Shown: positions 1 through 55,879 of the stretch, one piece after another | How the letters are laid out: the number at the start of each line of letters is the position of its first letter | Numbering within the stretch: the first letter of the stretch is position 1 | Assembly: GCA_001938485.1 (NCBI GenBank) | Contig: MQRK01178631.1 | Coordinates: 6,518 to 62,396 of the forward strand | DNA: 55,879 nucleotides | DNA from: Girardia tigrina | Lineage: Eukaryota | Reading direction: 5' to 3' | Notes under the pieces: model-generated | Told to the model about the DNA's origin: nothing | The model's database searches: none | The model's input: only the letters and a program-made list of their open reading frames with translations | Position numbers and translations under genes: made by a program

Positions 1-69
1 TCATTCGTAAGAGTAGCTTCTGCCATGTCTACCAGCAAATATAAAATTATGTAATTATAACACACAAAA

Positions 70-955
70 AGATATGGTGTCTATATTACGTGTTCTCAAA
101 TAGCTGCCGCACCCTGTATGTATCCGTGCATTGTCCTGGATAAGGAAATGGGGTCTCACAGGCATTTTTTCGGATAATTCATCGATAAACACATGGTACT
201 TGATATTATCCAAACTGCCCCTGGTCCTTCTTTGTCTGTGGCCATCACCACCGACATATTATTCCCCCTATTTGTAGGTAACACCGATATTCACAGGTTC
301 TCCTCTTTTAGACCGCCCTGTTGTCCTTCTCGTCCAAAGGTTGAAACCGATTTCATTAATGTAGACACATTGATTAATCCGCCAATCTTCTTTCATAAAT
401 CGCCAGGCATATTGAAATCTGATTTCCTTTACCCGATCAGAGTGATTTCTTGTACTGAGCCTCTGACTTTTTTATTGTGATTAACTAGCCATTCAGGAAT
501 CTGGATATTGTAGCTTGTGATACATTGATTCCTTGATTTTCTTCTAGAAATCTCTTCATTTCGGACAGTGTTGATTTGGAGTTGTCCTCAATGAATTATA
601 TTAACAGTTCGCCCACTTATTTTATGATTATTGGCTTCATGTAGCCTCCCCAGTTTCCAAATGATATGAGACCATACATTCTATTCTTATAAACTATTGT
701 TTTGGCCGCCGATTCGGAGATGTTTAGTTGTCTGGCCAGGTGAAGTAATCCTCGCCCATATTATATGCTCTAATGAGCCTTTCTTTATCGATTTCTGCAA
801 TTCTAAATGCCCATAATTATTCGTAGTTAAAATTAAATTAAAATTGCGATTTTCTTGTTTCCTTTTCTCATTATCATCCGTCATGCTAAAAATGCAAATT
901 AATAATAAAAACGAAAGGTATGAAATAACAACCTCGTGTAAGTGTTGCTCGCACT
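70..955 (-). mobile_element. Degraded IS630/Tc1-like (DDE_3-type) DNA transposon; its terminus is interrupted by the LINE at 964
   Basis: Minus-strand frames read CVYINEIGFNLWTRRTTGRSKRGEP (first catalytic D motif, degenerate) and QDNARIH (second D), with frameshifts. The probable terminus continues after the LINE as GGGAATA at 3744-3750. Confidence 0.7.
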
Positions 956-963
956 ACTAATTG

Positions 964-3735
964 TTCAATTTTCAGGTACCGATTGGAAGTTTACCAATCA
1001 AAAGATCTGTGATGTTGTATGAGGAGCAAGCACAAGATCAAAGCGAACTCCCCCGAATCAAAAGTGGCTACATGGTCACCTAGAGGAGTTAAAGATACAT
1101 ATTGGAGAAAAATGGGCGAGGCAAACTGAGTTTGTGAGGAATAGAAACTACGACACTTTTTCCAGGTGGAAATCCAGCAGAATACTTCTCCAGAAGAACA
1201 TCAGAAGATGGAAACGTCAAAGAGTCGAGGCTCTAGGCCAACAAATCGAGAAGATACTAAACAATGACGGAGAAGGAAAACTGAAGGAGCTCACTACGGA
1301 ACTACGTATCCTCTGTAAATCTCAATCGAAGGAGAACACTCTGTGTACTACGTCGAACCCTATTGGGAACAAGGAGCTGACCAACCACTTCAATAATCTT
1401 TTTAGGGCCCCATTAGAGCAGAAGGAACGGATTAATATCACTGGAGACACTCTAAATCTCGATGATTTGGATTCTCCTCCGACGAGAGAAGAAATAACTC
1501 AGGCAATGAAGCAGTTGAAGAGTGGTACAGCCGCGGGATCTGATGGATTGATCCCTGACATCTATAAGTGGGGGGGTGTGTGAAAATACTAACCCTGCTG
1601 GAGGAGTGCTTTAGGAACATATGGAACGGATTAGAGGCATTCCCATCTAGTTGGAGAGAGGTCAAAGTGGTGCTTCTTTTCAAAGGGAAAGGCTCTCGAA
1701 AAGATCCAAATAACTACCGAGGCATTTTTCTTTTAGATGTAGGAGGAAAGATTCTAGCCAGAATCATCCCGAACCGAATCACTCCGATCACCGAAACGAT
1801 ACTGGACGAGTGGCAGTATGGATTCCGGCCGGGAAGAGGAACTCAGTTGGCTATAATTTTCTTTAGGAAATTGCAGGAGGAAGCGCGATACAAGAACATT
1901 AATATGTATGTCATCTTTATCGACTCGAAGAAGGCATTCGACAGTGTCCCCTGGAGTCTCTTCTATGGAGCTGTTTAAAGAGACTTGGGATAAGGGGGAG
2001 AATGTTAGAGATCATCAAAACTTTCTATGAGGGATTCGAAGGTTCTATAGGTGATGAAACCTTCAACATAGATAAAGGAGTGCGTCAAGGTTGTGTTTTT
2101 GGGCCGCTCCTGTTCAATATTGTATTCGACACGGTTGTGAAAAGAGCAATATTGAACGGTCTCTCTGGAGGAGTGATGATGAAAAATGAAGACGGAAGCT
2201 TCCTTGAGATCAACAGACTAGCATATGCTGACAATCTCTGCTTCATCGACACGGACTGGAACAACCTGATAAATAATTTGAACATTTTAAATGCATCCTT
2301 TTTAGATTTAGGTCTCAAAATTAACATCGGTAAAACCAAAGTTTTGAACCTAAACGGAGATGCTCGGATCATTACTGCTGGGCACCAGCTTGAGGCCGGT
2401 ATTGAGTGGGTCTCTAGCTTTTGTTACCTAGGATCCACGATCTCTTCAACAGGAAATGTGGACGCGGAAGTGAAAGAAAGAATCAAGAAAGGAGCCCAGA
2501 AGATCCGGGATCTGAGACCAGTGCTGAAGAACTCCAAACTGAGTATGAGGAATAAGAAGAAAGTAATCAACGCATGCATATTCTCCGTAGTCTACTACGG
2601 CTGTGAAAGCTGGAGAACTGCTGACATGAACATTAAGAAATTACATGCCCTTCATAACCCATGCACGCGCATAGTTAGGAAGAAACACAAAATTGAAAAG
2701 ATCCGTATGGACATCCTGGACATTGGACTCCCACATCCCATGGATATTATCGAGAGTAAACGGCTTACTTTCCACAATAAGACAGAAACAAAAACTTCAG
2801 AGGAGTACAAGACAATCAAACGAATCTGGAAGGGAGAAATACAAATGTGGAAGAAGATCAGTGGGAGGAAGAAGCAATCAATTTCGGAATGTCTTCGAGT
2901 GGACATACAGTGGCTATTTAGGGATGATGCGGTGTATGGAGATTTCATTAACCGCATCAATCACAGAGATCCTACTGTATCGAGGGAAACATACATAAAC
3001 TCCTTAATTCGATCAGTAAGACTCAATAGGACAAGAACAACTGTACCGAAGCTGATCAACGAGAGAGACAAACGTCACCAATGTCCAGTAAAAAGATGCT
3101 ACAAGGAGTTTGCTGAAAAGAAGGAACTGAATAGACACATGAAAATGGACCATGCGGTGTCCACTTCCGCTAATCCTGATCAGCTCAATGAGATACAACA
3201 ACAGCAATTGTCATTCCCATGTACACTATGCCAAAAGTCGTACAAAACGAAGGGGTGGTTGACCAGGCATCTCTACCGGGATCATAAATTGGAGGAGACC
3301 GAAAAAATTGGAGAACCGACAATGATACCAGCGCAAACCAGTACAACAACAGAAGAAAGAGTCGTAGAAAACCTCAACATTCCAGGCAACCAGATTCAAT
3401 CTGTGACGGACTAAATCGACTATCTCGACGGCGGTGGAAGAAAAGATCGGTACTGAAGAAACACATCTAACTTTTTAGATCTAACTGCAAGGGTGGAGTT
3501 CAGATGTCCCTTTCGTGGATGTACGAAATCCACGAATACAGACAAAGGTATGCAGAACCATGGCTATACAACCCATGTGTGATCGTTTCTCACAGGGAAG
3601 CCGAAAAGATCTCGGAGACAGAAACTATCCGATCCAGTAGGAGGCCTATCGGGGGGCTGCTAGTGATTCTTTAGTTTGGGTGGACCTACTAAAGAGCCTA
3701 GAGGCTCAATACCATTCGAAAGAGATGGGAGGCCC
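964..3735 (+). mobile_element. 5'-truncated RTE-like non-LTR retrotransposon (LINE) with RT and three C-terminal C2H2 fingers; copy 1
   Basis: ORF pieces 1134-1583, 1568-1978 and 2002-3414 join by frameshifts into one RT: PPTREEI..K.G.AAGSDG, NYRGI, QYGFRPGR, FIDSKKAFDSV, GVRQGCVFGPLLFN, LAYADN (YADD mutated), GLKINIGKTK, YLGS. Fingers: CPVKRC..HMKMDH, CTLC..HLYRDH, CPFRGC..HGYTTH. The ancestral ORF ends DPVGGLSGGC* at 3663. An 8-bp TSD ACTAATTG lies at 956-963 and 3736-3743. Confidence 0.93.
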
Positions 3736-4453
3736 ACTAATTGGGGAATATTCAAAATTTTCCATTTTTTTATTAAAAAATATTTTTTATTAAGTGCTCT
3801 ATTTTTTTATTAAATGAACTTAAAATAGGTGTGTATTATCTTGTGTATGTTTGTATTTTGTGTGTGTTTGGCGTGTGTGTGGTGTATGTATGGGTGAGAA
3901 AATATTTATCATATATTATTTTTTATTAACTGTAAACATACGTTATTAAAGTGTGTTTTCATTTAATTTTCTACCTTCTCATTGTATATTTAATTTTAGA
4001 TTTGGATTTTATTTATGGATTTTGTAAAATACTGTCCAATATTTGTTATTAACTGAAAGCCACAGTATATTGACAACGGAACTGATTAACTAAACACCTT
4101 CATTTTATCTTTCTGTTAAATAGTTATAGTTTAATATAATTGTATTAAACAATTGCATATTTCTTTTTATTTATATTGGTTCTGGATTCGAAAAAATTAT
4201 AAAATAAATAAAAAACTGTAGATGTAAAATTAAAAATAAAAATGTTTATTTATATTACGAAAAAGGAAATTATATTTTGTGAAAAACATTCATTTTCGGA
4301 TTGTTTAAACGCTTCGAAATAATCTAACATTATTGTTGGTGTTTATATGTGACTTTATAAATTTGAGGTGATTTGTAAAGAAAAATAAAAGTTGTATATG
4401 ACTGGTGTTTTTCTTTTCAATTTTATCAGTTGGCTAATTTCGCTAAAAATTTC

Positions 4454-5274
4454 TGTTGTGTGCCACCACAGTCCCGTTTTTTTATTATTTGTTGAACAAG
4501 AAAATTTAGAAGCCATGTAATTATGTTTGTGTTTATTTTAGTTATATTCGTGTTCATTTTTTATACATCGCCGTCGCAAGAGAGGACAAGTTTTACCAGA
4601 TGCCTAACCACGCAAAAACTTTCCTCCCAGAGAGTCTGTACACAACTAAATTCCTCTGGCTCAAGGACTACACATCCAACGGGTTGAAACTACCCTACAC
4701 CGGACCTAATAAAATCATTGAACTTTACCCCAGCAACCCGAAAATCATCAAGGACGGCAAAACTATCACAGTCCACCTCAATAACACCAAGCCCGCCTTC
4801 GTCGTGGACGACACCACCATCCCGGACAGCAATAACATGACCAGTTTCCTCTCTGACATGCTCGAGATGACCGTCACCGGTAAACCGCTCATTACCACCA
4901 ATCCAACTCCGTGCGAAGGAGCCAGCGGAAATACTGCAACTATTTCCACGACACCGCACGTCGAAGACAACAGTGATCAAACATCACCCGTTGACATTGT
5001 CGTTACTAAGCAACGCAACTCTCACATTAGACCTGCCAGATTCACAAGTTTGGTACCCATGCAAACCCCAACGGGCATCACCGGACTCCGCAGGCTCGAA
5101 CAATAACCTTCCGCGTTTCCCTTCCGGCGTGTCTCGTGTCTTTCGTTCGGGGGAGTTGTATTGTGTGCCATCACATTCCCGTATTTTTTAATTATTTGTT
5201 GAACAAGAAAATTTAGAAGTCATGTAATTATGCTTGTGTTTATTTTAGTTATATTTGTGTTCATTTTTTTATAC
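4454..5274 (+). mobile_element. Miniature, internally deleted Gypsy-like LTR element with two ~115-bp LTRs
   Basis: Direct repeats at 4454-4567 (TG...ACA) and ~5159-5274. A polypurine tract GGGGGAG precedes the second repeat. Internal ORF 4600-5106 carries an integrase C-terminal GPY/F-like motif (LPYTGPNKII...GKTITVHLNNTKPAF). Confidence 0.75.
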
Positions 5275-5879
5275 TTCTTTGTATGTAAATGCCTTTTCCT
5301 ATTTTGTATTTGTGGATCAAAGTAATTGGAAATTTAATTTCAGAAATCAAAAAAATATTATTAAAAACGAAAAACGAATTTGTTTTAATCGATGATTAGC
5401 GTAAGCTAAAAATTTTTTGAAATAAAATAAAGAAATTGAATATCAGCCTTACTATTTTTTACTTATAATATCATCAATTGAATCGCTCATTTGATTCATT
5501 CTCGTTAATCTGTTTTATGCCTCTTTTAAATACTTGAAAACCGTTAGATTCATTTCCCAACTGCATCTCATGTTACTTGATATTGAAATGGATTTGGAGT
5601 TTTGATATTTTTGTCTGCTATTCTATATGGACAATTTATTAACGATAAAAATTTAATGATCTTTAACTCAAACCCAAATAAAACCGATTAATCCAATATT
5701 TCTCAATGGCCGAATTTTCATCACAACAATCAGCGGCGTGGCCGTTTTCTCGGTGCTATCGTCGCTTTTTGGTCGCGTGAGGGTTTGCCGATTTTGCGGT
5801 TCGCGGGCCCGTGGTCCCGACGAATATACAACAATTCTAAATACGTGAATGCAATTAAGTCAAGTGATGAGATTAATAG

Positions 5880-6955: not shown

Positions 6956-9369
6956 GACAAATAAGTTGACAACCATAAATATAGCAAATCTTCTAGATTT
7001 AAAAATACAAAAGAAAAATTAAATTTAGTTTTAGAAAACTTCATTGAAAAAAATCTATCATTGAAAAATTTTTTTCTTATTAAATTTTGTTTAAGAAATT
7101 TAGGTTACATACGAAAATAATGAGAAAATGAACACTAATGCTTCGCAACATATTTAGATTTAATAAATACGTCGTTTTAAAATAAGTTCAGATTTTATCA
7201 AAAAGTTCAATTTTTCAAATTAATTTTATGTATTTTCCATATTTATTATAACGAATCACTTCAAGACGAAAACTTTCATTGTTATTAAAATGGTTTCTGA
7301 TTCGTAAATATGTATGAATTAGAGTTGTACGTATTTATAAAACGAGAAAACGTTAACTACAATATTATAATTAATTAGGTGTATTTTGAAAATGTAATTT
7401 TGGATATTTAAAAACAAATGGAAAATTCGCGATGTTTTGTGTACGTTCTTCAAACTGTTATTTGCATTATACCACTACAATCGATACAACAAATATTACA
7501 TTGATTAATACACCGATTGCATTATTATTTTATGGACTAAATTTCCCTTTCAATATTTAATATCCAATTATTTTTTTTAATAGAAAATTTTTTAAAAAAA
7601 CAAAATTTATAATTAAATATTTTCTAATTTGTTTTAATAATGTAAAAGGGACAGAAATTTCGTAATCAGTTCAAATGAAAATTTAAAAATGTCTTAATCA
7701 TGAAAATTACTTGCAAACCATTTCAATGAAAAAATGTTTTCCTTTTGGACAAAAACCAACCAATTATTGATGGTATATTAGAGGAAAATGAGAATTTCGA
7801 ACATAAATCGTTGAATCAAAGAAAGTTTCAAATCTCTTTAATATCACTAAGATTTATGCGTCATTCAAAATACTAACGGTTATAACCATTGGAAAATGAA
7901 TTTCCTAACAATATAATAAGAAATTCATTCATATTTACTACAAGTTATAACATTTTCAGAAAAAAATACTTAGGCTTACCTAAAAAAAACAATGGTATAA
8001 AAGAAGGATATTGCTGTGATCAAGTTGTTCTTCATATTTTCAATTTTATCCTTTTTTCAATTAAATTAGAAAACTTTGGGGAAAAATTCATAATAACAAA
8101 AGAAGAGGCTGTTTTGAATTATGAAAGGTCTTATAAATAATTGCAATTCTCTCATTTTATATATGAACATATTTCAATTTTTCCCCGGAAAATGTGCTTA
8201 AAAGTTATGATGCATGGAAAAAAATAATATCGATATCAAAAAAGTTGAGGAACTGAAATGATATTTCTGAAATATTGCTTCCATGAATTCTTAACAGACA
8301 TTAATTCGTGTAAGAAGAATGTTAAAATTAAAATTTTTAGCCTCACGAAAAATATTTACACTTAATATCACTAAGTGATCTATCTCCATAAATTTGATAT
8401 TAATATTTTCAAATAAAACATTTTTTCCATAAGAAAACAGAAAATAATGGTTTACATATATCAATGCCTTCGGAACTTCTTTAATAAGTCCTTCGATATT
8501 AAAAATATTATTTTCATCACACTTGACAAAAATTCTTTTTTCAAAATGATTTTAGAAAGAATAATCATAATTTTCTTTGATATTTATAAATTTAACTACT
8601 TAAAGACTTATATTTAAAATTACGATTATGCGATAAAATTCTTTTTTAATTAAAAAAATATGATCTGTTTTTACATTTGTAGCTTTATCTATAATTGTCA
8701 GGACCGTTAACAAAACATTCATTCAGTTATACTTTTTGATTTGGTGACGATGTATCTCATTGTCGAAGAATGTTTTACTATCTGTATTTTAAAAATAACC
8801 TTTGTGAATTTTGATTACGGCTTCCAAATGGATAAATCTTTTTAATTATAAAAAAACTTATTCATTAAGAATGGCGGGAATTTGTAATTATTAAAATATC
8901 TTAAACAACATTTTCAAAATTTATTATATAATGATTTTCAGTTATTAAATCGAAAAAAAGAAACTATTCCGATCTAAATTATGACCCACTTGAATCAAGG
9001 TATATTTTATCAGATCATTTCTCAGAGAATTCTAAAATTTTTAAATCATAAATTTCGACAAACCTGATTCCAAATACTATTAACATAAACATTATTTTGA
9101 GATATGTTCCACAATAAACCCTAAGAATGCTTGGTTTTTGCTCTTATCTTGCTTATAAATCTTGGTATCTCTGCAAACGGATCGAAGAGCATAGTCAAAT
9201 GGATAATTAAGTAAATATTGCTAAACATAATAAAAATGTAAACAACTAAATCAAAAAGTTAAATTTTTTACATCCATTCTTTATGCAGACCGAACTCCAC
9301 TTTTCCAACAAAGATTTAATTACAAAAAGTAATTTAAAAAAACAATAAAAAATTAATATAAACTACTTA

Positions 9370-10870: not shown

Positions 10871-12464
10871 TGCAATTATTTTTTAAGTTATATGATTTAA
10901 TCCGAATATTTATATTTTAATAATTTCCTATCAGAAATTAAATAGTAAATATTAATTACTCATTTTAATATAGTACATTTAAAATTAGCGGTTTAATCTT
11001 TAGCAAATGTGCATTTTATCCATAATTCATGCATAAGGAATTTAATTAACCTTTTTCTCAAAAAACGATTCTATATTAAATTTATATTATTCTTAACAAA
11101 ATTGTCTATATTTTCTACGGGAACCATATTTCATTTAAAATCTTTTCAAGATAAAATGCTAGGGTTGGTAAGTGCTACAAGTTTTTTTATTCGTTTCATT
11201 GTATACTCTTAGTGACGCTGCATCATAAAGCCAATAAAAAAGGCAATCAAAAAAATTTTGAAATTTTTGGCAATTTTATTTAAAATTAAATTTCTTTTAC
11301 GTCTTAGTACATTTTTTATTTTTTTTGTAGATTGAAGAAATAAAAGCTTTTTGATTATAAAAAATATATTTTGACGTGATGGATTTTAAATAGAAATTTG
11401 AAATTTTTATATATTTGGCTTTATAAATTATGTCCTCAAAATTGTGGTTCATAATTATCATACATTGATCTAGACTGAAGTTTTCTATCATTTACGAGTC
11501 CTTTCAAGTGGTATTTGTGTTGTCTCTTCAAAATAGATGACACTTGATATAATTGGATCGATATTATCACAGAATGATGTATGTTGTAGAGAAAGAGTGA
11601 TTGCATACGGATTCCACAAAGTGAATAAACATGACTGGGATATTATATTACGAGAAAGGAACTGCTGGCAATGTACTACTTTGCACAACACATCGTATAC
11701 GACAAGAATTTTTTAATAAGAAGGGATCAAAAAACCGTTACTTTTATGATTATTAAGAACATTCAGACAAATCTCGTTCGAATTTTTATTGCAATCACAT
11801 TTAGAGTCATTATGACTCTCAGAAAGTCTTCAATCGTTTGTCATATATCTAATTGGTTTTCTTATTTCTCTTTTTAATCATGATTATTCGAAGAATTTTT
11901 CTAAGTCATTTTTTAAAATATTCAACTTATAAAAATTATTAATTAAAAATAATAATTTTTACCATTTCTCAATAAATCCCAAAATAATAAAAATGTCATC
12001 AAATTATTAAAAATGCATTTAATTTAAATTTTACTAAAAAATATTAAACTTAATTTTAATTGTTAAATTGAAAATATGAACTTATAAAATGATTTTAATT
12101 ATGTTCGAATAGTCAATCACTTTAAATTTAAATAAAAAAATACCAATTTCCATCTGGGTGGGAAAATCACCATTCTAAATTCAACATACTTAAATCAATT
12201 TACAGTATCAATACATTTACACATTCAAACAATTTAAAATATTCCTCACAATGATGATAAAAAACTAAATAACTGTACGATTTCAAACTTGGATAAATTT
12301 CTTTAGTGAGTAGGATACGATAAAAAAATACCAGAAAGATGAAAAGCACTCTAAAGGCAATGCAATGTCAAAAAACTTTTAAAAAGAAAGTTTTTAAAGT
12401 GAAAAAATATTATTTTGATAATGTTAATTGAATTGCTTTATTTCTATTACACAAAAAGATCATT

Positions 12465-13469: not shown

Positions 13470-13670
13470 GTTACCTACATTGAGGGAATCAGAAAATGAA
13501 AAAATATAATATTAAACATAATAAAAAATATTTAATTTTAAAAATGTGTCTAGATCAGGTAAGATTGAAAGTTTGTTAAGTGGTAATTATATCACTCCAA
13601 CTGGCTTATGATCCAATTCAGTTTATCCGTATCAATGTCATGAGTATGACGCCCCGTACATCGGAGAGAT
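13470..13670 (+). mobile_element. Penelope-like GIY-YIG fragment
   Basis: KIESLLS...TPTGL*SNSVYPYQCHEYDAPYIGE parallels SNLVYQFLCNGYNATYIGET of ORF 33975-34487. Confidence 0.6.
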
Positions 13671-14431
13671 TTTTTTTGATCTCTATAAAAGGATTCAGGA
13701 ATAAAATCAAAAAGAAAGTGATAGTAAAATTGCTAAACATAAAAAATATTTTAAATACTGAAGTTGAGTAATTACTTATATTATAAGTAATTTTAATATT
13801 TCGTATTCAAAATTGAATAATTACTGGGAGAGAGTAATGTTTGAAGCATTGATGATTAAATCCTTTGATAATAAAATCAATATCTTTTTCAACTTTATTG
13901 AGAGTATTTTTATTTAGTAATAGCATAATGAATACATAAACTGTAATTTTGTATATAAATTTCCACATATAATTATTAATTTAGTCTGGTGATGATAATT
14001 GATCCGTCGAAATTAATTATAATATAATATGTTGATTCTTTATGTTGTTTTAGTAATAATTTATCATCATTTCTCGAATGTTTGTATGAATTTCCTTTAT
14101 ATATTCATTTTCTTTAATTGTATGACTTTTCAATATTAATAATATCTTTATTTATTACAATAGTTTACCTTAACCTATACTGATGCTACCTATTCTATCT
14201 ACTATGTGTCAACGCCTATATTATGGCTCTCTTTTTTGATCTTTGAAATTCATTCTCTTTATAACAATTCTCGGACAAAAAATAATTATTTGTCTTGATT
14301 TCTTTATCTCGTTTGGTTCATCAATAGAAGCATAGAATATAATTAATTTTTTATTCTGTTTATTAACTAAAAATTATTTGAAAAAACAAAAACTAATTGT
14401 TGTTTATAAAGTAATACGTAAATAATGACTA

Positions 14432-15538: not shown

Positions 15539-18500
15539 ATGTCTGATAATCGTTATTATGATGAAGTCGGAAATCGGAAACTGACAACAAACAATCGAAA
15601 AACTTCAAAGTAAATCGAATATTTTTTGACGGGTTTTAGATTTTTATCGCTATTTCATCAGCTATCAGCAAATCGCTAATCGATCCTCATCGTTATATTC
15701 GGAGATCATGAAAAACGTCAATCGATCTCCGAATTCTCAATCGGGATCGAATTATCGACCGGAATCATCGGTGTCGATGGAGTTCCTCGACATCCCGCTT
15801 CCCAGAGATTCGCCGGACGCGAAAATCGCGGCGAAAAACGGTCGAAAACGCCCCTACAAACCGTCCAATCGAATCGACGACGACAAATCGATCAATTCCA
15901 AGAAGAAACCGATCGTCAGTAATGATAATGTGCCGGTGGTCGGTGGGGCGGCGACTCCGGTCGTCGGCCGGGTCGAGAACGCGATTCGGCTGCCGAGTAT
16001 CTGCGGAACGCGCTCGAAAAATCGATTCGGATCGACGTGGGGCGAGCGGTCGGTGAAGTCATTCAAAATCCTGGCGGAGGTGGGCGAGGGCACGTACGGC
16101 CACGTGTTCAAGGCCGTCGAGAGGCGGACGGGCGCCATGAGAGCTCTGAAGAAGATCCGATTGGAGAACGAGAGGGAAGGGTTCCCGATCACGACCGTGC
16201 GCGAGATCAAGATTCTCCAGCAACTGGCGCATCCGAATATCGTGAGGTTGAGTGAAGTCGTGACCGATTGTGATTTGCGGGCCGGTGTCAACAACGACAA
16301 TGGCTTCTATCTCGTGTTCGAGTACATGGACCACGATTTGTTCGGCATTCTCGACTCGGGCATCTCCTTGTCCGATATGCAGGTGGCGTCCATTATGAAG
16401 CAGATCATCGACGGGCTGTGTTATTGTCACAAGAGAATGTTTCTGCATCGCGACATCAAGTGCTCGAATATTCTCGTTAATAATCGGTAATTTTTTGGTT
16501 TATTTATTGATTATTTTAAAGGGAATATTATCATTATGATATATCACAGAGGCGTTTTTGATTTTAATTGTCAATTGTGCCATTGGACGTTTAAATTTAG
16601 GACTGTATTTTGGTACTTTCACGCGCGTGTTAGATATTCGTTTTTGCACATTATCTTCATTTAAGTGACTCAAATGTCTCTCTTGTTTCGGCTTAATTAC
16701 ACATTTGATACTGCTATTTTTAATAATTTCTTATATTTTAAAAAAATATCGATTTTTTTTAAATTATCAAAATTGAATAATAAATAAATTTTATTAAGAG
16801 AAAAAATATTTTAAAATTATCAATTGTTATATAACATAATATTTAAAAATTCCAAAAATATATTTCAGAAATAAATTAAAATATATTATTTAAAAATTAT
16901 CAAATTTTTACTGTAAGAAAATAATAATTTATTAAATTTTTTTAAATTTAAAAAATAGCATTATTTAAATAAAGACTTATAAAACATTATCTTCGTATAA
17001 TTTTTTAAATTGTCTCTGTTCTTTCAATCAATATAAAACATTTGATTCTGTTATTTTTTAATTAATTTAAAAAATATTTAATAAATTATTTTAATTAATT
17101 TATTAAAAATGTTTTATAATTTGGAAATAAAATATCGATTTTTTAAATTATCAAAATTGAATAATAAATAAATTTTATTAAGAGAAAATTGATTTAATTC
17201 CGAGAAAAAATATTTTAAAATTATCAAATGTTATATAACATAATATTTAAAAATTCCAAAAACATATTTCAGAAATAAATTAAAATATATTATTTAAAAA
17301 TTATCAAATTTTTACTGTAAGAAAATAATAATTTATTAATTTTTTTTAAATTTAAAAAATAGCATTATTTAAATAAAGACTTATAAAACATTATCTTCGT
17401 ATAATTTTTTAAATTGTCTCTGTTCTTTCAATCAATATAAAACATTTGATTCTGTTATTNNNNNNNNNNNNNNNNNNNNNNNNNNNNNNNNNNNNNNNNN
17501 NNNNNNNNNTTATCAAATGTTATATAACATAATATTTAAAAATTCCAAAAACATATTTCAGAAATAAATTAAAATATATTATTTAAAAATTATCAAATTT
17601 TTACTGTAAGAAAATAATAATTTATTAAATTTTTATAAATTTTTTTTATTATATTTTAAAATTATCTAATGTTATATAACATAATATTTAAAAATTCCAA
17701 AAATATATTTCAGAAATAAATTAAAATATATTATTTAAAAATATTTTTAATTAAAAATTATTAAAAACGTTTTATAATTTGGAAATAAATAAAACATAAT
17801 ATGAATAAACTTTTAAATATTCTTGCTGGTTTTTTTTTCAGTTAATATATGATAATTTAATTATATTTATATTAATTTAAATTATTCGATTTTGAGTATT
17901 TAGAAAAATCGATATTTTATTTTTAAAAGTATAAAAAAGCTTGTATAAAAGTGTGTAAAAATATTTGAAAAATCCTAAAAAAACATTTTGAATTTAATTA
18001 AAATAATTAATACTCTCGAACAAAAAGAATTCTTAGAAACACATTAAAATAATTTATTGAATTATTTAAAAAATTATCAAATTTCATTTTTGGTACCGTA
18101 GCCTTTGGGCCGTGGGTGCACTCAATTATGCTTGGGTTTTGAATATGCATTTGAGAGTCTCAGTAGGCGAGGAACCTGGTGGCGCCTATCTTCTCTTCAG
18201 GTATGGATGGCCGTTGGTTCCAAGGAGCTCATCCGCCCTTTGCTAGGTTTTCTTTTTCATCCTCCTGGTGTCCACACACCTCTTCACCCAAATTGCTCTG
18301 GTTGAGGCAGCCGGTTTAGTCGCCAACCATTCAAATTTTTACTGTAAGAAAATATTTTTTTAAATAATTTATTAACGTTTTTAAATTTAAAAAATAGCAG
18401 ATTTAAATAGACATAGAACACTATCTTCGTATAATTTGTTAAATTGACTCTTCTTTCGATCAATATAAAAATTTGATTCTGTTTTTTTAATTAATTTTAA

Positions 18501-19759
18501 AAATATTTAATAAATTATTTTAATTAATTTATTAAAAACATTCTATAATTTGGAAATAAAATATCGATTTTTCTAAATTATCAAAATCAAATCATTAATA
18601 AATTTTATGGAACGGCTAACGATCTGCGCCCCACAAAAATTTATAATTTATAATTAATCGAAAATTAATTAATTAATAAATAAGTACATAAATCAATTGA
18701 ATAAATAAATTATTAATTAAATGAATAATTAAAAATAGTAATAAATAATTAAATAAATCATTAACTAAATAAATTACTTTTATATTGATGCCAAAAGTCT
18801 TAGAAAAATGCCTGCTATTAATTTGTGTGAAAGAAGACAGATTGAAAGTTGTTCCGTTGAAGACTCCATCACAAGATTTGTGCCGGACAAACAGACAGAT
18901 GAAGCTTGTATAAACGCGTGTAAAAATATTTGTAAAATCCTAAAAAAACATCTAGAATTTAATTAAAATTATTAATACTCTAGAAAAAAAGAATTTATTG
19001 AATTATTTAAAAATTATCAAATTTTTACTGTAAGAAAATATTTTTTAAATTAAATTATAAATAATCTATTAAAAAATAGCAGATTTAAATAAAAACGTAT
19101 AAAATTCTGCTATTTTTTTGAAAAATATTCAATAAAAACGTTCTATAATTTTGAAAATAAAATATCGATTTTTCTAAATACTCAAAATCGAATAATTAAA
19201 ATTAATATAAATATTATTAAATTATCATATATAAACTGGCACGAATATTTAAAAGATTTTTTGAAAAATTACATCAAATAAATATTTTTATAAATTATTA
19301 AAAAATTGTAGAAAATAAATAAATATGTTTTACAAAAACGAATGTCCAATACACGTGTAAATTGTTTTAAATTTCCATTGATTTATACTCTGAAACTGTT
19401 GGGGACCGATAACCAAATACATCCTTACTACCAGCATCGATTGCACCTTTATTCCCGGGATAGGATGAACGGCGATGAGTGTTAACCTTTTTCGGAATCA
19501 GGCGTTCAGAGATACTTCTATTCATTCGGCATTTACCACAATCTGCAAGTTCTTATCATCCGAATTAGACGATCGATCGGATCAGTGTTTGTCTTTCGAA
19601 CAATTAAACCACTTACTTTTGCTTCATCCTATAATAACGGATCAACACGCACAAATAGTCTAAGTCCAATAGAAAAAGAATTTTAGAATGCGTAATAATG
19701 ATTTTTTTAAAATATTTTTGAAAAATTAAATTTGCTTTAATAAAATTCAATATTTTTTG

Positions 19760-31172: not shown

Positions 31173-32944
31173 AATGTAATGAAAAAAATAACTCTGATTT
31201 GAAATATATTATCTTTAATTTGTCTTTGTTTTCATTTTTATTGTTTTGACCAAATAAATTGCTTTTACAAATTGATTTGGCATAATTGTACTCCATTGGT
31301 TATTTGTTTTTATATTTTGGTAATTATATATATATAATACTAAAAAATGTTAATATAAGAAAAAAAGCATTTATTTTAATAGGTTGTCATTGACAACCTT
31401 CCGAGAAGTTAGTGACGTTTTTATTAATTGTAATTTTATTAACTTATTATAGTGATTTCACACTATTTTCCTATTCAGTCTCAAAATTTCCTGAATTAAG
31501 TTATAAGAAAAATAAGTAATTCAAGATTAATTATTTAATTAATTTTAATTTATCGGTTAAATTAAACTATAAAATTATAGTTTAAATTTTTTGTTTTCGA
31601 AAGTATCTCTTTGAGGTGATAGTATACGCCGTGAAACGTATATACCTATATGTTCAAACGTAGAGTTTTTTAGATTTGCGAAACATATTGAAATATTTTT
31701 CTGTTTTTGTTTCGTAAATTTATTGTCAACTCTGAATATAATAAAACTATTGATGTTGCTAAAATGATCGAATGCTTTTTTATTTTAAATATTAATGTTC
31801 AAACATTTATACCAGTCACATTATAGACTCAATATTATAAAATATATATTTTAAAAATAATTGAAGTAATTTATATTTTCGAAAATAATACTTTGCATAT
31901 CTTTGAGCTTTCCTGACAACAATATTATGAAAACTACATTGGACAGTGATCTTATCAATCGTTGGTACGTTAGTTTATCCTCCAAATTGTACTATTTTCG
32001 ACAATTTATTATTAATTTGTGGTTCCTGTTGTCATTTATCTATGAAATTGGTCGACTCTTAAAATAAAACCCTAGCAACAATTTGGTACTTGAAAAATCA
32101 ATCTGCACCGTGAGTCAAAACAAATGTTGGATGAAAACACAACGTATCATCATTGAAACAACTCGAAGACTCGTTAAAACACCAAAAAAAAATATTGCTA
32201 TTCTTTCCGTTTAATAAAATTTTTGAAATTGTATAAAGATTGCTATAATTATTAAAATTCAAAACATTATTTTTTCCATTTAATTTATTTAACCAAAACT
32301 AAACAATTTAGATTTTTTTAATAATTGTAATGTTAGCCATGTAATATATTAATATAATATAATAATGATACTATTTAATTAAAATTTTTTATATTTGTAA
32401 TTTCAAAATTTCTTTAGTTTAACACAGACTAATTGTTTTTTTTAGATTTAGTCGAAACTACTTTTTTATTCTCTCAATAAACGAAATGCCTTGAAAAAAT
32501 TCAATTTTAAGCGAAAAATTATTAGATTTATAATGATACAACATGTGTAATAATTTTTTTCACTATTCACAATCTCGCAAAAAACATTTTCCAAACAATT
32601 TTTAAGCTCGAATTTTATCTCTAAAAATACCGACCCAAAAATTTTCAATTTATATTATTAATTTCTAGAAAAAATCTTCCATTATATTTCCATTTCTAAA
32701 ACGAAAATTTTTTTCCAAACAAAAATTCACAACTAATTGAAAATTATTGCATATGTTTGTTTCTTTTAATAATCATAATTAAACTAATAAGAGACGCATA
32801 ATCTATTTAAAATCGGTTTCATTTTTTCTCGTAATTTTAGATTACAAACGCATGATTTCGAAATCGATTGTCTTTTTTTCCAAACAGAAAATGAATTTCA
32901 TTGTAAAATAAACGCCGCTAGATTATTGGGAAAATAATTTAGCA

Positions 32945-33475
32945 ATGGACAATCATGCTTCAGTTCATTCGTTAGACACAAACGATTTGTTAATGATGCG
33001 ATCTCACCCTAATTGGAGTCCATCGAATGGAATTAGTAAAATCAACCTGAAAATCGAAAAATTGTCGTTGCCATCGTTTCCGCCGACTCAAGATTACATA
33101 AATACGAACACAAATTCGATCGGTCACGCTAATTTGGATAGCGACACTCGCCAGTCGATTAATTCCATGGAGAAAGTCAATTCGAGCAACTGCAAAGAGT
33201 TCTATAAGTGTCAATTGTGTCAGGAATCGTTCGTCACCAAACAGGCTCTCAAGCACCACAAAGACAGCAATCACAACGAGCGGAAAACATTTCGCTGTAC
33301 GTTTAGCAATTGTCTCCGAGCGTTTACGTCGGCCAATTATCTGAAGAATCACGTCGATATCGAACACACGGACTCCATGGATCACAGAATTCCGTGTCCA
33401 AAGAAAGGATGCGGATTGATTTTTCCGAATAATTATCGTTTAAAACGACATATTCGACAGGATCATAAACGTTAG
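32945..33475 (+). CDS. C2H2 zinc-finger protein (3 fingers)
   Basis: Intact 176-aa ORF with CQLC..HKDSNH, CTFSNC..HVDIEH and CPKKGC..HIRQDH. Its composition resembles the CDK exons. Extra exons cannot be excluded. Confidence 0.85.
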   Translation: MDNHASVHSLDTNDLLMMRSHPNWSPSNGISKINLKIEKLSLPSFPPTQDYINTNTNSIGHANLDSDTRQSINSMEKVNSSNCKEFYKCQLCQESFVTKQALKHHKDSNHNERKTFRCTFSNCLRAFTSANYLKNHVDIEHTDSMDHRIPCPKKGCGLIFPNNYRLKRHIRQDHKR

Positions 33476-33791
33476 CGTTTTTTGTGGAATCTTTTTTTAA
33501 TATTTATATTTAATTTGGTAAAAAAACTAAATTTGATCACAGTCGATTTTAAAATTACACTTCATTTAATCACACTCTTTGTTTGACATTGAACTTTTTG
33601 TAAGGTAGTTGATCTATTGAGAGAACCACAAGTTTCAAAGAAAACAAAACTTTTAAAGTCTGTATTAAAAATTACAGAAATTTCTTTTTAAAAACAAAAT
33701 CATCGACGATAAGTACAAATATGAATATTTTAAAAATTAAATGTAATTATTATTAATTATTAATCCAGAACACCAATGAACTCAAATTTTA

Positions 33792-33844
33792 TTGTCGCAA
33801 TATATTTCGGTGGATTTTCCACCATCTTCAGGCTGAATTAACAA
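33792..33844 (-). ncRNA. Minimal hammerhead ribozyme
   Basis: UUGUU..GC-CUGAAGA-U-GGUGGA AAA UCCACC-GAA-AUAUAU-U^GC-GACAA. Confidence 0.85.
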
Positions 33845-34700
33845 CAATTCCACTGTCTTATATATAGCAAATTGATGATTATGCAAACATCTTGCGTAAT
33901 AACTAATTAAATATTTTCAACAAATTGGAAGAGAGACTTGTTTGTACATTAATGGACGGATAATCAATAATGCCTCACAAGTAACTCTCCCAATAATTTT
34001 TAAAATTACTGCACAATATTTTAAAATTAGTTGTTTTCACCTCCGACTTACAACCCTTCATGTGTCCAGCAATATTACTCCCATTACCCAATCGTCCATG
34101 CTCCTGAATCCGTTTGCGGAGATGACGAGACGTCTCTCCGATGTATGTAGCGTTGTACCCATTACACAAAAATTGATAAACCAGATTGGAACGTAAACTC
34201 AAAGGAGAACGAGATTTATTGCTGAATATACTTTGAATTTTGTAAGATTTAGAAATGATTTTTAAATTCAAATTTTTACTATCGATTGATTTTAAAATAG
34301 ACGATTTAAATTTTTTGTAACCTTCTGAATGAGGAACGATTAGCGTATATCCAATATTAGAATTATCATTAGATAATTTATCGGGTTTTAATTCGCCTTT
34401 ACCCTCATGATCTTTATTCATTAATTTATCTATCGTCTCATTAGTTAGTTTCTCTAAAAATGATTTCGAATATCCATTTTTCTGCAATAGTTCTGTTAGT
34501 TTATCTATGCTTGCATTTTAAAATATTGTGCAGTAATTTTAAAAAAATATTGGGAAAGAGTTACTTGTGAAGCATTATTGATTATCCGTTCATTAATGTC
34601 CAAACAAGTCTCTCTTCCAATTTGTTGAAAATATTTAATTAGTTATTACGCAAGATGTTTACATAATCATCAATTTGTTATATATGAGACAGCGAAATTG

Positions 34701-34753
34701 TTGTTAATTCAGCCTGAAGATGGTGGAAAATCCACCGAAATATATCGCGACAA
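34701..34753 (+). ncRNA. Minimal hammerhead ribozyme
   Basis: CUGAAGA at 34714-34720, stem II GGUGGA/UCCACC, GAAA at 34737-34740, palindromic AUAUAU stem III, AUC^ cleavage after 34746, stem I GC/GC plus UUGUU/GACAA. Confidence 0.88.
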
Positions 34754-34989: not shown

Positions 34990-36950
34990 TGATTTTAAAA
35001 GGTGTATTAATTTTAAATGTACAATTAAAAGAAGAAAATACTGAAGAATACAAACAAATCATCAAAATAGCTTATTCCGAAGGATTTAGAGCTTTTAAGA
35101 AGAGTATTTGTAGAAGAGTAGTGTCAACGTAGTCTCTGTCACATCTGTGAGATATTATAGAATTAAATTTAAAGTAATTAAATAAAATATTGCACAATCA
35201 ACAAATTTAGAATATTTCTAAATTTGTATTATGTAACTATTACGGGGTCGAGAGCTGAGTTAACCTTTGACTCTCCATTTATTCTGTATATAACTGATGT
35301 ATGTGTGTTTGTGATTTAGTGTATTTAAATATATTTTAGTCCAGATCTTTTGTCTTCTAACAACATCCAAAGTTCAAAGTTTCCTCTCAAATAAATCGAA
35401 AACAGTTTGTAGATTGCAAACTAATCTGATATATAAATTTAATTGTCACGGGTGTCAAAATTCGTACATTGTAGAGGATTAAGAAAGGGAGAGCAAGACT
35501 CTGAGAAATCGCTCCAGTAGTCAAGAGTAATCTACTACCAATCCGAAGCAAGAAAGCTATCATGTACTATGGTTCAGAAAACTGGCGAACTAACGAAACT
35601 CTGATAAAGAAATTAGAAGCATTATACAATATGTGCACGAGAACAGCACTAGGCATCGACAAAAGAGAGAAAGTCAGGATGGAGACAATTAGTATTGAAC
35701 TTAGTCACCCAATGGACATCGTTGCCAGAAGACGGCTCCTGTTCCACGTTCCTCTGGCAACCGTAGAAGGTCAGGAATGCGTACAAAGAATACTCTCAGG
35801 TACAATAGAGAGCGACTCAAAGATCGGAGGACGGAAAAAGCAAAAACTATCGGAATGCCTGCGATTCAATGTGAATTGGTTGTTCGGAGAAACCGCCAGT
35901 CTCGACAGTGTTATTACTCTGCTGCAGAGTGGTGCTCAACTCCGAATGCGAGATAGACTCGATTATCTAATTCGCTATGCGAACACAGTAGGAAAAAAAA
36001 ACCACAGACTTGCCAAAGCTAATCAATCCAAGGATGAATACAGTTCGTTGCTATCTCGAGAACTGTAACAAAGGATTTGCAGAGAAAAAAGGACTGAATC
36101 GTCATATTCGTGAAGATCACCAGAAAATTATACCGGACGCAGAAAAGAAAGCATATCAGTGCCCATATTGCTGAAAAAGCTACTACGCTCAGGGGTGGTT
36201 AATAAGCAATTATTGGAAAGATCATTCATCAGCAAATATTCCAGAAGAAACAGTTACCAAGACTAAAAAGAAACCTCGCAAACCACAGAAAGACAGCAAC
36301 ATCAGAGAAAATGAAGACTTACCAACAAGTACCAGAACATTTCAGGTACCAACCGTCGGTGCGAGCACATCAACTGTTCCCCAAGAAGCGATCTTCTCAG
36401 AAGTACTGAGTTTCCGTCTAACAGACCAAACGGCAAAAGGAAACTTCAGATGTCCTTTCGCTGGCTGCTCCAAGTCCACGGGATCGGCCAAAGGAATGTT
36501 AAACCATGGAACATCCGACCATGGTTGGTCGTTTCACACTTGAGGACAGAGGAGAACTTGTAAGCGGTAAGCTGACGACCCCGTAGGAGGCCTATCGGGG
36601 TACTGCTAGATTATTTAGTGGGTGGACCCTCTAAAGAGCCTACGCCTTAATACCATTCGAAAGAGATGGGAGGCCCACATTGGAGAGACAATTCATCATC
36701 TCAAAACCCGGATTAGTGAGCACTCGCAAATGAGTCGATCGAGTAAGGTTCTTGATCATTGGTTATGCTGTAATGATAGAACCTCATCCATTTCAAAAGA
36801 TGAGTTTTCTGTTCTACAAAAAGGATTCGATTCACATTACGAACGCCAGTTTTGAGAATCTCTACTAATAAGACACTACAACCCATCAATCAACATTCAG
36901 AATGAGTAAAGTAAGGTTATTTCAATACTTAAAAATTTTAATTAAAATAT
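34990..36950 (+). mobile_element. Second Penelope-like element, interrupted by an LTR-like insert (~35110-35364) and by LINE copy 2
   Basis: IKIAYSEGFRAFKKSI / SKVQSFLSNKS..TNLIYKFNCHGCQNSYI|GETIHHLKTRISEH...ESLLIRHYNPSINIQ reassembles when 35472-36682 is removed. Confidence 0.85.
35472..36676 (+). mobile_element. LINE copy 2 (divergent subfamily of 964-3735), 5'-truncated
   Basis: YYGSENWRT, HPMDIV..RRL.FH, GGRKKQKLSECLR, fingers ..LNRHIREDH, CPYC and CPFAGC..NHGTSDH, and the end DPVGGLSGYC*. Same 3' terminus as copy 1. TSD ACATTG at 35466-35471 and 36677-36682. Confidence 0.92.
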
Positions 36951-51500: not shown

Positions 51501-52958
51501 GAGGTTATTATTAATCATTCAATTATTATAAAAATAATTCATCTTTTAACAATGTTAAATATTAAATTTATTAATGCTGTTATTTATGTTATGAAATACA
51601 AAACTTATATTAAATTTTGATTTATTGAATTTTGTAAAATTTATTTTGTAGATACATCAAAACCAAAGGTTTTCAATTTGTTAAACTTGAGTTCGTTTAC
51701 AAATTGTCAATTTTATGTTTTACTTGGAAAGTGTTATATAAATATTTACCTTTGAAAGAGATCAAGAAAGATTAGGTAAAATTGATGATCATTGAATCTT
51801 TCAAAATTTATAAGGATATAAAGCGTCATAATAAAGTAGAAAAATATCAATAAAGCTAATTTAATAAAATAAAAATAAGAAAAAAAATTTTATATACAAT
51901 TATTATTAAAATTATTATCATAATTAATTATTATCATAAATTATTATTAATCACCAATTCTTATAACGATCATAATCATCATTATTATTATTTTTTAATA
52001 ATTTCAATAAATTTGTATATTTTTTTAGATTTTGTTTTACAAATTTTCATTATCACTTTCCAAAAGATTAAAGACGAACAATTAAATATATTTTCGCTTC
52101 TCTTTTCATATTCTTAATTTACATAAAAACAATGTGTCTAGAGGAATCATTTCAATAATTAATAAATTAATTTTTATTTTTTTATGTAATAATTATTAAT
52201 TTTTTTCCTTTCTGTTTTTGTTTTATCAAATTTTCTATTTTTTTATTATTATTTGAAGTTAAATTAATTGGATTATTTGAATTATTTTATATTTTTTTCT
52301 TAAGTCATTGTCTATTAGTAAAGTTATGATTAAAACTTTTTCAGTTAAATAAATAGAAGAAAAAGAATAAAAAACATGTTAAATATGGTAACATTTCTGG
52401 ATGCTTTATGGAGTAAACATGAATGATAAATCTGCAATCAACAGCTCTGTCCTTTCATAAATACATTAATGTAATTTATTGAGTTATTAGAATACGCAAG
52501 GTTTCATGAAAGTTTCGTCAGCCTTGATTTTAGACAGAGATGTATCACAAATTACCATTAATGTACAATGTTCCTTGTCCAAACATTGACTTGTATCTTG
52601 TACCGAAAAAAAATATTAAACTGCTTTCTGGATACACTCTTTACTGATTTAAAACTGCCATTAATTTCCTTTGGAACCTACTTAGAATCTGACAATTTTA
52701 TAACTTCTTTTTCAGTCAAAGAAGATCTTCTTGATTAAGTAAAGTTGTAAATAATACCTTTCTTTAAATTTTAACAGAATATAGCTTATAATGTTTTAAT
52801 TTGGTACAATTTTTGTGGCAAAAAGTTTATCCTATTATAATTAAAAAAAATCAAGAGGATATTTATTAAACATTTATTCCTTAAGGAATATTGGTATAAA
52901 TTACAATAGGGTGTAAAAGTTAGTATTTCATATTGTTACCTTATCATTACTTACTCTC

Positions 52959-54166
52959 AGGAAGACACGAAAAATTGTGAACGCCTGTATATTTTCCCTA
53001 GTTTTTTTATAGATTTGAAAGTTGGAGAACCACTATGAAGAACATTAATAAACTACAGCTGCTTCACAACTTATGTACCAGATATATTTTAGATTTGGAA
53101 AAATAGAAAAAAATCCGTATGGACACTATGGACAATGGATTCTTGCTATCAATGCACATTATCGCCAGTAGACATCTGGTATTTCATTGCAAGATTGAAG
53201 CGAAAGAAAAGTTCGAATACATCAAACGAATCTGGACAGCGAAGATGTAAATGGGGAACAAGATTAATTGGAAAAAGAAACAATCCATCTCCGATTATCT
53301 CCGAGTGGATATACATTGTCTTTTCGGGTATGATGCCGTCTACGATGACTTTATGAATCACATCATACACAGAGACCCAATTGTAGATTGTGACATGTAT
53401 GTGAACTCCCTAATCAGTTTAGGCTGGGTCCATCGAACAAAAACAAATGTACCAAAACTAATCAAGCAGAGAGAAGCTTCTACAATTTTAAAAAGTGTGA
53501 TATTACAAGGAGTTTGCCGAGCGAAACGAGCTATATAAACTTTTCAGGAAAGACCATGCAGCGGCGGCCACTCCACATCCCCAAACAGAAACGATAATGA
53601 CGATAAATGCCGAAGAAGTTGCAAAAATTTTCAAATAGGTATTTGCTGTAAAATGACCTATAAAATAAAAGCGTGGCTGAAGAGACACGTCAATAAGGAT
53701 CACAAACTGGATGGGGCCGAGATTGTCGGAATCTCATCAAATCAAGCAGAGCCGATCAACCAGATCAGAAATACGATTGGGGAAGCCGATAAAATATCAA
53801 ACATATTCCAGAAACTCAAAATCATTTAGCAACGGAACCTCAGACTATCTCCACGGTGGTTGAAGAAATGATCAATGCCGAAAAAACACATCTGTTTTTT
53901 AGGATTGCAGATTTATCTCAGAGGACAGAATTTAGATGCATCTTTCGCAGCTGCATAAAGTCTACAAATACAGCCAAAGGCATACAAAACCCTGGAACTA
54001 CAATCCATGGGTAGGCGTTTCTTATAGGGAAACCGAAAAGATATCAGAAACCGAAGTAATCCGACTCCGTGTCAGGCATATCGGGGGACTGTTAGATACT
54101 CTCTAGTTTTTTGGGACACTTTAAAGAACCTTAAAGCTCAATACCATTGAAAGAGATAGTAGGCCA
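52959..54166 (+). mobile_element. LINE copy 3 (same family as 964-3735), degraded
   Basis: IVNACIFSLV, KKKQSISDYLRVDIHCLFGYDAVYDDF, VPKLI, finger remnants, SDSVSGISGDC*, and the terminus CAATACCATTGAAAGAGATAGTAGGCCAAC. Confidence 0.9.
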
Positions 54167-54175
54167 ACATAATTG

Positions 54176-55308
54176 CATAATAATTAATATTTTTAAGAAC
54201 TTTTTGATTCTCCTTGGCATTGATGAAATAAATCTTTGACACAACTCTAGTGGTTTTCAAAGCAACATATGCGATCTACGTCTACCAGTAAATGGAGAAG
54301 AGATATGATATTCAAGGTAGAAAGCTTCGTCTACATGATCTCTCATAGATTTTCTATGGAGTTAAGATCTGATGAATAACTGAGCCAATCAAGCACTGTG
54401 ATTCGGTTTGGCTGAAACCATTGAGTGACTGCTTTAACTTTATGACATGGTGCTGAATCATGCTGGAACACATTAAACTGAAGGTTATGCATCCAGACGG
54501 ACCATTTCTTCTCTAAAACAGTCTGATAATGTTGGCATCAATTATTTTATATTTGGAAAAATACTAAAGATTACCCTATCACCAAAGACAAAGCACCCCT
54601 TTACTATAATTTTAAGTGAGTGTTTCACATTAGAAGAGTTGTATTCAGGAGGATGTAGAAAAAATCCCTGAATGTTATATCGACAGAATCCACTTTAATC
54701 TAAAAGGAACACAGATTTATAATGGTCAATTATTCAATGCTAATACGTTCGACAAAAAGCTAAACGACGTTGAGCAAAAACCTTGGCCATTAGTGGTTTA
54801 GGGTAAATAGCGCGTATTAATAGCTGCAAATCCACGTGTAACCGTCCTCTAATAGTTCGAGCGGGCACATGTACAAATTATGGAAGCTTTACCTTAACTT
54901 TGGAAGATATAACAAAATGATTTTTTTTGATCAGACGTTTTTTGATCATTCCTCATAGTAGTCTTTTGGTTGAACTTCATTGAGAATTTTGTTCACAATT
55001 GCATATGATATAGATAGCCGTCTAGCAATAACATTCTGATGGTAAACTTCTTTATTGAGTAAAATGATGGAAGTTTTCCGTTCTCCTGTGATGTCCTTTG
55101 TACGAGCCATTTGTAATGTTAAACTAAAAAGAGATTATAAATAATTAATGAATAATCAAATCATCATAAAAATAGTCAAAATTAATGAAATAATTTAAAT
55201 GAAAATAATTAATTTGAACCATTAAATTCAATTATAATGTCTTATTTTACATAAAAAATGTAATTATACCAAATTGACCAAACAATTCTAATTTTATGGC
55301 CAATACTG
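54176..55308 (-). mobile_element. Tc1-type transposon, degraded
   Basis: TIR-like end CAGTATTGGCCATAAAATTAGAAT at 55308. Motifs MARTKDITGERK, FQHDSAPCHKVK and SSMPRRI. Confidence 0.85.
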
Positions 55309-55879
55309 TCTATAATGCATAAATCCTTTCATTAAATTCAAATACCCTTTTATTCCACACTCAATAATTGTCATTTACTTAAATATACTTAAATTTACAT
55401 TATATATAATTTCATAAAATAATGTTTTAAAGAGATTTTTTATTATAATTTGAGAATATTTAGATTAATGTTGGAAAACCGAAACTTATTTCATACATTA
55501 TAATGTCTTTCACCTACCCCAAGTGTGAGGAATATTTTAAATTGTTTGAATGTGTAAATGTATTGATGATGTCTGTTGATTTAAGTATGTTGAATTTAGA
55601 ATGGTGATTCTTCCATCCAGATGGAAATTGCTATTTTTTTAATTAAATTTAAAGTGATTATTAAAATAATCATTTGATAAGTTCATGTTTTTTAATTTAA
55701 CAATTAAAATTAAGTTTAATATTTTTTAATATAATTTAAGTTTTTAATTTGTATTATTAATTTGTATTTTTAAGCACTTTTTAAGCACTTTTCATATACC
55801 TTCACTGTATTTCATCTTGTCAAGAATGGGCCATTTACTTTTGCCTATATCTCAGCATTTAGACCACATAGAAACTTCA

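Follow-up and report, generated by a model that had tools for sequence, protein, structure and literature searches.

Target-site duplications ending in ATTG most likely reflect a short insertion consensus in a tail-less, three-finger lineage of RTE-group LINEs

Three copies of a LINE family lie in the 55,879-nucleotide stretch of Girardia tigrina DNA analysed here (the window), which is AT-rich (~30% GC). An earlier note, made from the letters of the sequence, had described a target motif AC-N0-3-ATTG common to the three copies and had placed each of them in or next to another transposon. The locus raises the question of whether this family selects its insertion sites, at which step of integration a preference would act, and which part of the element would exert it. 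All three copies are on the + strand, and together with the domains identified in copy 1 they are as follows:

964..3735, + strand: copy 1, a 5'-truncated LINE without the APE part, with frameshifts and stops in the RT and C-terminus
1568..2450 (approximate), + strand: copy 1 reverse transcriptase domain, in two frames (Pfam RVT_1, E 4e-15 and 1e-12)
3076..3144, + strand: copy 1 C2H2 finger 1 (Pfam)
3214..3285, + strand: copy 1 C2H2 finger 2 (Pfam zf-C2H2)
3505..3576, + strand: copy 1 C2H2 finger 3, in a later frame past a frameshift, matching residues 644-667 of P0207
3643..3735, + strand: conserved 3' end, comprising the last codons, a stop at 3661-3663, a UTR of ~72 nt and a predicted GGCC-GGCC stem
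35472..36676, + strand: copy 2, 5'-truncated, of a different subfamily (80.6% amino-acid identity to P0073)
52936..54167, + strand: copy 3, 5'-truncated and decayed, of a third subfamily

Copies 1 and 2 have different best-matching database proteins; copy 1 is 87.5% identical to P0207 in amino acids, and P0207 is 93% identical to the query made from copy 1. Pairwise DNA identity was 54.5% for copies 1 and 2, 64.9% for copies 1 and 3, and 50.4% for the remaining pair, and alignment of the three pre-insertion sites shows no more than 4 bases in common. With sites that are not related in sequence and copies just 50-65% identical, the insertions were independent events. Searches of the window with nhmmer and blastn (3' end) and with tblastn (ORFs) returned no fourth copy. 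A scan of bacterial and archaeal genome contigs gave eight loci, none of this lineage (24-33% identity, in the RT region only). Within that scan, a bacterial MAG (L001 2937-7190, L002 and L006; CBDHDV010000077.1, ...143.1, ...186.1) carried intact tandem eukaryote-type LINE ORFs of ~1400 aa, whose C-terminus resembles a restriction-like endonuclease and which are likely eukaryotic contamination.

The junctions of the three copies carry the following target-site duplications (TSDs):

956..963, + strand: copy 1 left TSD, ACTAATTG, checked letter for letter
3736..3743, + strand: copy 1 right TSD, ACTAATTG, its initial AC ambiguous between element and target
35466..35471, + strand: copy 2 left TSD, ACATTG, inside the Y-I-G codons of a Penelope GIY-YIG
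36677..36682, + strand: copy 2 right TSD, ACATTG
52929..52935, + strand: candidate copy 3 left TSD, CATATTG, one base short relative to the right side
54168..54175, + strand: copy 3 right TSD, CATAATTG, preceded by an A at 54167 that is unmatched on the left

The duplications reported earlier for copies 1 and 2 proved exact by letter comparison. Copy 3 had been described as lacking a matching left TSD, and here the candidate CATATTG had been overlooked: it differs from CATAATTG by a one-base indel, and the protein homology of copy 3 reaches ~52932, near this candidate. The 3' junction of the same copy reads ACATAATTG at 54167-54175 (letter-for-letter check). ATTG is the end of all three TSDs, which measure 8, 6 and ~8 bp in copies 1, 2 and 3, and it lies at the distal TSD end in each case, in subfamilies merely 50-65% identical. 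The proposal that the duplications end in ATTG now holds at 3/3 sites, but its second half, that a G follows, does not (G, G and C).

Which bases belong to the element and which to the target was judged at both ends. AC is matched by the target at two of the three sites and C at all three; the base preceding the left TSD of copy 3 is T, not A. Because the leading A of the copy 3 junction is not target DNA, AC is most likely the element's own end, as had been suspected. The terminal AC is probably the element terminus and gives 1-2 nt of priming microhomology. At the 5' side, microhomology may shift the apparent TSD end by at least one base. A T directly follows the ATTG of the TSD at all three 5' junctions (964, 35472 and 52936); in copy 2 it occupies the place where the reading frame suggests G and is possibly an untemplated base.

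The surroundings of the copies bear on whether ATTG is target DNA or an element-encoded tail:

1..885, - strand: decayed, tentatively assigned IS630/Tc1-like transposase remnant adjoining copy 1
35369..36843, + strand: Penelope GIY-YIG coding remnant interrupted by copy 2 (tblastn, empty-site frame)
52920..52928, - strand: K-Y-stop codons left of copy 3, likely the end of the host Tc1 transposase (empty-site frame)
54176..55310, - strand: decayed Tc1 element, host of copy 3, 5' end approximate

Deletion of copy 2 and one TSD copy made the Penelope GIY-YIG frame continuous through Y-I-G, and this empty-site frame matches the intact neighbouring Penelope GIY-YIG at 33975-34517. Since excision restores the frame, the 6-bp TSD of copy 2 is target DNA and not tail. 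At copy 3 the host is a Tc1 element (Pfam DDE_3, E 9e-5; NCBIfam IS630, E 2e-4), and the empty site puts a C-terminal K-Y-stop in frame, which we take to be the usual ending of Tc1 proteins and which also ends the Tc1-containing P0048. A K-Y-stop no more than 10 nt from the site is expected by chance with P 0.004. On the left of copy 3, a search for the other terminal repeat of the Tc1 found none, which slightly weakens the assignment. The view that ATTG is target rather than tail is thus borne out by host frames restored without the element at copies 2 and 3. As to the proposed hosts, Penelope is well supported and Tc1 is supported, while the IS630/Tc1 assignment at copy 1 is weak (NCBIfam IS630, E 0.056, with DDE-like motifs read by eye and the other end beyond the window). 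Taken together, the three junctions are real and consist of target DNA, and the three TSDs stand on firmer ground than in the earlier note. A probable Tc1-type terminal region, unlike the host Tc1 of copy 3, was also seen twice (87%), at 12021-12250 and 55524-55742. A further Penelope GIY-YIG fragment lies at 33709-34828 on the - strand between 320-bp inverted repeats (89% identical), and other Penelope remnants lie near 13525-13830 and 9139-9222.

The type of element was determined from relatives, since the APE is known from these only and the window copies are 5'-truncated. In two near full-length relatives, P0001 (1145 aa, 49% identity) and P0002 (1169 aa, 47%), a single protein combines an APE with intact catalytic motifs (PF14529, E 1.5e-6 and 5e-7), RVT_1 and three C2H2 fingers; neither contains PF20049, nor any RNase H family at E up to 1. 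Their contigs are ~4.0-4.1 kb long, a size that fits one ORF. An APE plus RT protein (in the relatives), 5'-truncated copies, a common 3' end and TSDs together identify an APE-type non-LTR retrotransposon.

At least two fingers near the C-terminus were found in 38 of the 231 proteins collected. In a tree of 64 of the 161 complete-RT rows, 23 of the 26 multi-finger rows formed one clade (SH-aLRT 100), and the remaining three fell among ordinary RTE-like rows. A bootstrapped tree of 45 rows recovered all 15 chosen core rows as a 100/100 clade, joined to RTE-like and RTEX-like rows at an unresolved fork. By sequence comparison, the element is placed in the RTE group as a distinct lineage, relative to rows whose labels come from Pfam PF20049, database names or sequence motifs and not from a curated reference set. 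A search of the main text of mostly open-access literature, outside Repbase and Dfam, turned up neither an RTE lineage that carries three C2H2 fingers at its C-terminus nor an ATTG target, so the lineage may already be catalogued.

The odd part of the element's 3' end is the missing tail. All 18 RTE families of Table 2 in PMC6007223 end in repeats, and no poly(A) or repeat tail separates the conserved end from the TSD in any of the three copies. Copies 1 and 2 reach 90% identity in their last 75 nt, compared with an overall value of 54.5%. The final ORF codons (3631-3663) are kept in P0001, P0002, P0058, P0207 and P0208, including the 47-49%-identical relatives, probably because they overlap a 3' RNA element. 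A predicted fold closed by the first and last GGCC is the minimum-energy structure in copy 1 and near the minimum in copy 2, but the fold is weakly supported, with z values of -1.65, -1.69 and +0.90 and one compensatory pair among 26. Stem-loops conserved at the 3' end are usual in 'stringent' LINEs (PMC3747384). A ribozyme or other known RNA at the 3' end was rejected, the three Rfam matches in the window being sub-threshold and none lying at an element end.

The strength of the ATTG signal was assessed by 100,000 draws from the window, with LINE copies and N removed. A TSD-like repeat in the uncertain left window arose by chance with P 0.007 for copy 1 and 0.005 for copy 2, and the one-edit match between the left and right TSDs of copy 3 with P 0.035. 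For a common 4-mer abutting either cut, P was 0.00049 with three sites and 0.035 with the two perfect TSDs alone; for a common run of at least 4 anywhere within 8 or 20 nt of either cut, it was 0.003 or 0.009. Post-hoc free choice of motif position lifts P from ~5e-4 to ~1e-2, and all of these values come from a window itself chosen among many and from n = 3 sites, one with an imperfect TSD. The ATTG signal exceeds chance for a single window.

That the signal is nevertheless coincidental is rather unlikely in our estimate: the element would insert loosely in AT-rich DNA with 1-2 nt of microhomology, and ATTG would be fortuitous, in part through TSD ends shifted by 5' microhomology. The P values obtained with free motif position or from the two perfect TSDs alone agree with it, as do the 768 occurrences of ATTG on both strands, the many windows screened and the flatworm RTE SR3, which the available text of PMC1291365 credits with an AT preference only. 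Against it, the third TSD was placed by the left-right match and the host frame, not by the motif, yet ends in ATTG at the match boundary. A deliberate choice of other transposons as safe havens is a different way to read the same sites. All three copies lie in or beside TE remnants, with a nominal P of 0.02-0.035 at a recognisable repeat and TE share of at least 27% of the usable window (33% with 50-bp margins). This share is a lower bound that counts the recognised part only, TE spans were partly read by eye, and the three flanks were inspected more closely than the rest. Tx1 in Xenopus does target other transposons. Here, however, the hosts are unrelated (Penelope and two Tc1/IS630 types) and have no significant sequence in common apart from the motif, and selection removes insertions in genes. 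We consider transposon targeting very improbable; the position of all three copies at TEs probably reflects the survival of insertions outside genes.

The earlier note had looked to the C-terminal zinc fingers for specificity. We judge it improbable that they read ATTG, or a longer spaced motif, and so fix the second-strand cut. The fingers do mark the lineage, through the 23 of 26 multi-finger rows in one clade; their recognition-helix positions are conserved at 25-35% overall identity, and position 3 of finger 2 is aromatic in 27 of 29 proteins. The ESM Atlas placed the finger region in generic C2H2 clusters only. The canonical linker of C2H2 finger arrays is short, whereas the linkers in P0207 are 22 and 77 aa, so the fingers do not form a tandem array. 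The C-terminal fingers of L1Tc, moreover, bind nucleic acid independently of sequence and have a chaperone role (PMC5814959, PMC3820030), and the proposal is not supported. An upstream look-alike, GGGTGT...AAA, was rejected as an extended motif: it occurs at sites 2 and 3 with P 0.06-0.08 and at different distances from the cut. Its form GGGTGT-AAA-TT-GT spans 35450-35465 at site 2 and 52909-52925 at site 3. Recognition might instead lie in the RNA, if it ended in, or continued into, a stretch resembling the junction of copy 3 and picked targets by longer RNA-DNA pairing. The three 3' junctions do align as gapped versions of one 9-mer, and tail-target pairing has been proposed for RTEs (PMC6007223, PMC13295347). 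However, every junction equals its own left flank and there is no common tail, copy 2 has no extra templated tail bases, and 3' pairing leaves the cut after ATTG unexplained; we give this explanation very little credence.

With a probability of about 0.55, our main reading is that of a dispersed RTE-group LINE that inserts by target-primed reverse transcription at a short target consensus, a bias of the L1/Bov-B/ingi type that is likely read by the APE, the fingers being likelier RNA-binding or chaperone modules. The APE is favoured as the putative reader of ATTG because the fingers are widely spaced and those of L1Tc bind without sequence specificity. The relative site specificity of ingi has likewise been attributed to its endonuclease (PMC3820030, PMC5814959). 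Most likely, the consensus is strongest at the second-strand cut and amounts neither to true site specificity nor to transposon targeting.

During target-primed reverse transcription, the first nick falls at the start of the TSD and the second at its end (PMC2881922), and the position of the second cut is LINE-specific (PMC4245944). The sequence of events may be pictured as follows. The protein would bind the tail-less 3' end of its own RNA, which is conserved and presumably structured. The APE would then nick the bottom strand ~6-8 nt before the end of ATTG, as the TSDs suggest. A primer would anneal to the final 1-2 nt of the RNA (C or AC) to start reverse transcription, the microhomology being visible at the junctions and its role being suggested by analogy with RTEs. 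Cleavage of the top strand right after ATTG would yield the TSDs of 8, 6 and ~8 bp. In the simplest form the motif would set an 8-bp stagger, and the primer of copy 2 would have been shortened by 2 nt. Two of the three TSDs are 8 bp, and therefore such a stagger, combined with trimming of a single primer, accounts for the data just as well as the 'variable priming' proposed before. Of the claim that the second cut is fixed after ATTG, the presence of ATTG at 3/3 ends stands, while 'fixed' extrapolates from three sites only.

The comparison with known elements shows how much of this is new. RTE-type insertion signatures are established, namely Tn-TA and a first TSD base equal to the RNA 3' end (PMC6007223, PMC13295347), and Bov-B TSDs start at T|A (PMC13295347). 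The second nick of L1 prefers TNTN|AA at a near-fixed spacing, and priming alters TSD length (PMC2836564). The short consensus is a variant of a known phenomenon because these RTE signatures and the L1 second-nick motif exist; the view that motif and priming are unusual for RTE-like LINEs was overstated. RTE-clade LINEs with Tn-TA (Bov-B and plant RTEs) share with this element the APE-RT protein, an RTE-group RT and a conserved 3' end, as well as the identity of first TSD base and RNA end; T|A starts the TSD here in copies 1 and 2 (2/3), as in the Bov-B signature. The T-stretch near -10 of the RTE signature is not evident in copy 2 and not consistent across n = 3. The element differs from RTE-clade LINEs in having no microsatellite tail, in TSDs of 6-8 bp, shorter than their 10-12 bp peak, in a motif at the distal TSD end where theirs lies upstream of the first nick, and in three C2H2 fingers without PF20049. 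Measured against the strict RTE clade, the lack of RNase H is present and the 3' microsatellite-like tail absent, and the TSD trait (7-15 bp, Tn-TA) compares with 8, 6 and ~8 bp and T|A at 2/3 sites (n = 3). The TSD start fits known RTE behaviour, and ATTG at the TSD end is the new part.

Outside the RTE group, ingi and L1Tc (PMC5814959, PMC3820030) are likewise APE LINEs with C-terminal C2H2 fingers and a degenerate target consensus. They differ in ending in a poly(A) tail, in producing a 12-bp TSD, in placing the consensus upstream of the first nick and in encoding an RNase H, a domain not found here. Human L1/Alu (PMC2836564) shares a second-nick motif (TNTN|AA), near-fixed spacing and a TSD length modified by priming, and differs in its poly(A) priming, ORF1, spacing of 15-16 bp and strong motif at the first nick. 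R1 and Tx1 are the sole APE clades named as site-specific in the available text of PMC6007223. Site-specific APE LINEs of the R1 and Tx1 clades share the recurring target motif and the APE, but insert at a single long site within a multicopy repeat; the present motif is only 4-5 bp long and lies in unrelated hosts. AC-N0-3-ATTG occurs 159 times (83 + 76) in the 56 kb of the window, and the specificity is therefore not of the R1/Tx1 type.

A bolder account is tentative, and we lean against it: a deep RTE-group lineage (at least 23 divergent proteins) would have replaced the repeat tail by a folded blunt 3' end, gained three C2H2 fingers, and come to read ATTG at the second cut, a trait kept between subfamilies that differ by 35-50%, with the first nick and priming free to vary in position. 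Little is known of what positions second-strand cleavage in LINEs (PMC2881922, PMC4245944). If the account were true, this APE element would follow its strongest sequence rule at the second cut, the most poorly understood stage of LINE integration, and with a compact tail-less element that obeys a 4-base rule there, domain swaps could put the question to the test. Proteins of the RTE type are under development as gene-insertion tools with random integration (PMC13708176), to which a natural motif-biased relative would be useful. Should ATTG be due to chance, there would remain a separate lineage of the RTE group marked by its three fingers and its unusual 3' end, mainly of interest to transposon curators. 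Most likely, the locus is less exotic than first read: its LINEs belong to a distinct RTE-group lineage, tail-less and with three fingers, that inserts at a short consensus.

The window contains further features. A host-like ORF with multiple C2H2 zinc fingers at 32912-33475 shows weak similarity to the fingers of the LINE (E down to 2e-5). At 4456-5277, two 115-bp direct repeats flank an ORF that by eye resembles an integrase C-terminus, possibly a miniature LTR element. A CDK12/13 gene lies at 15630-16490, 29837-30163 and 30678-31172, its coding stretches separated by ~13 kb filled with TEs; within the gene, a complex array of direct and inverted AT-rich repeats spans 16717-19307. The best named single-domain matches of this gene are flatworm proteins; two higher-scoring rows, one from a mite and one from a record flagged as a contaminant, cover about two thirds of the query at 54-55% identity.
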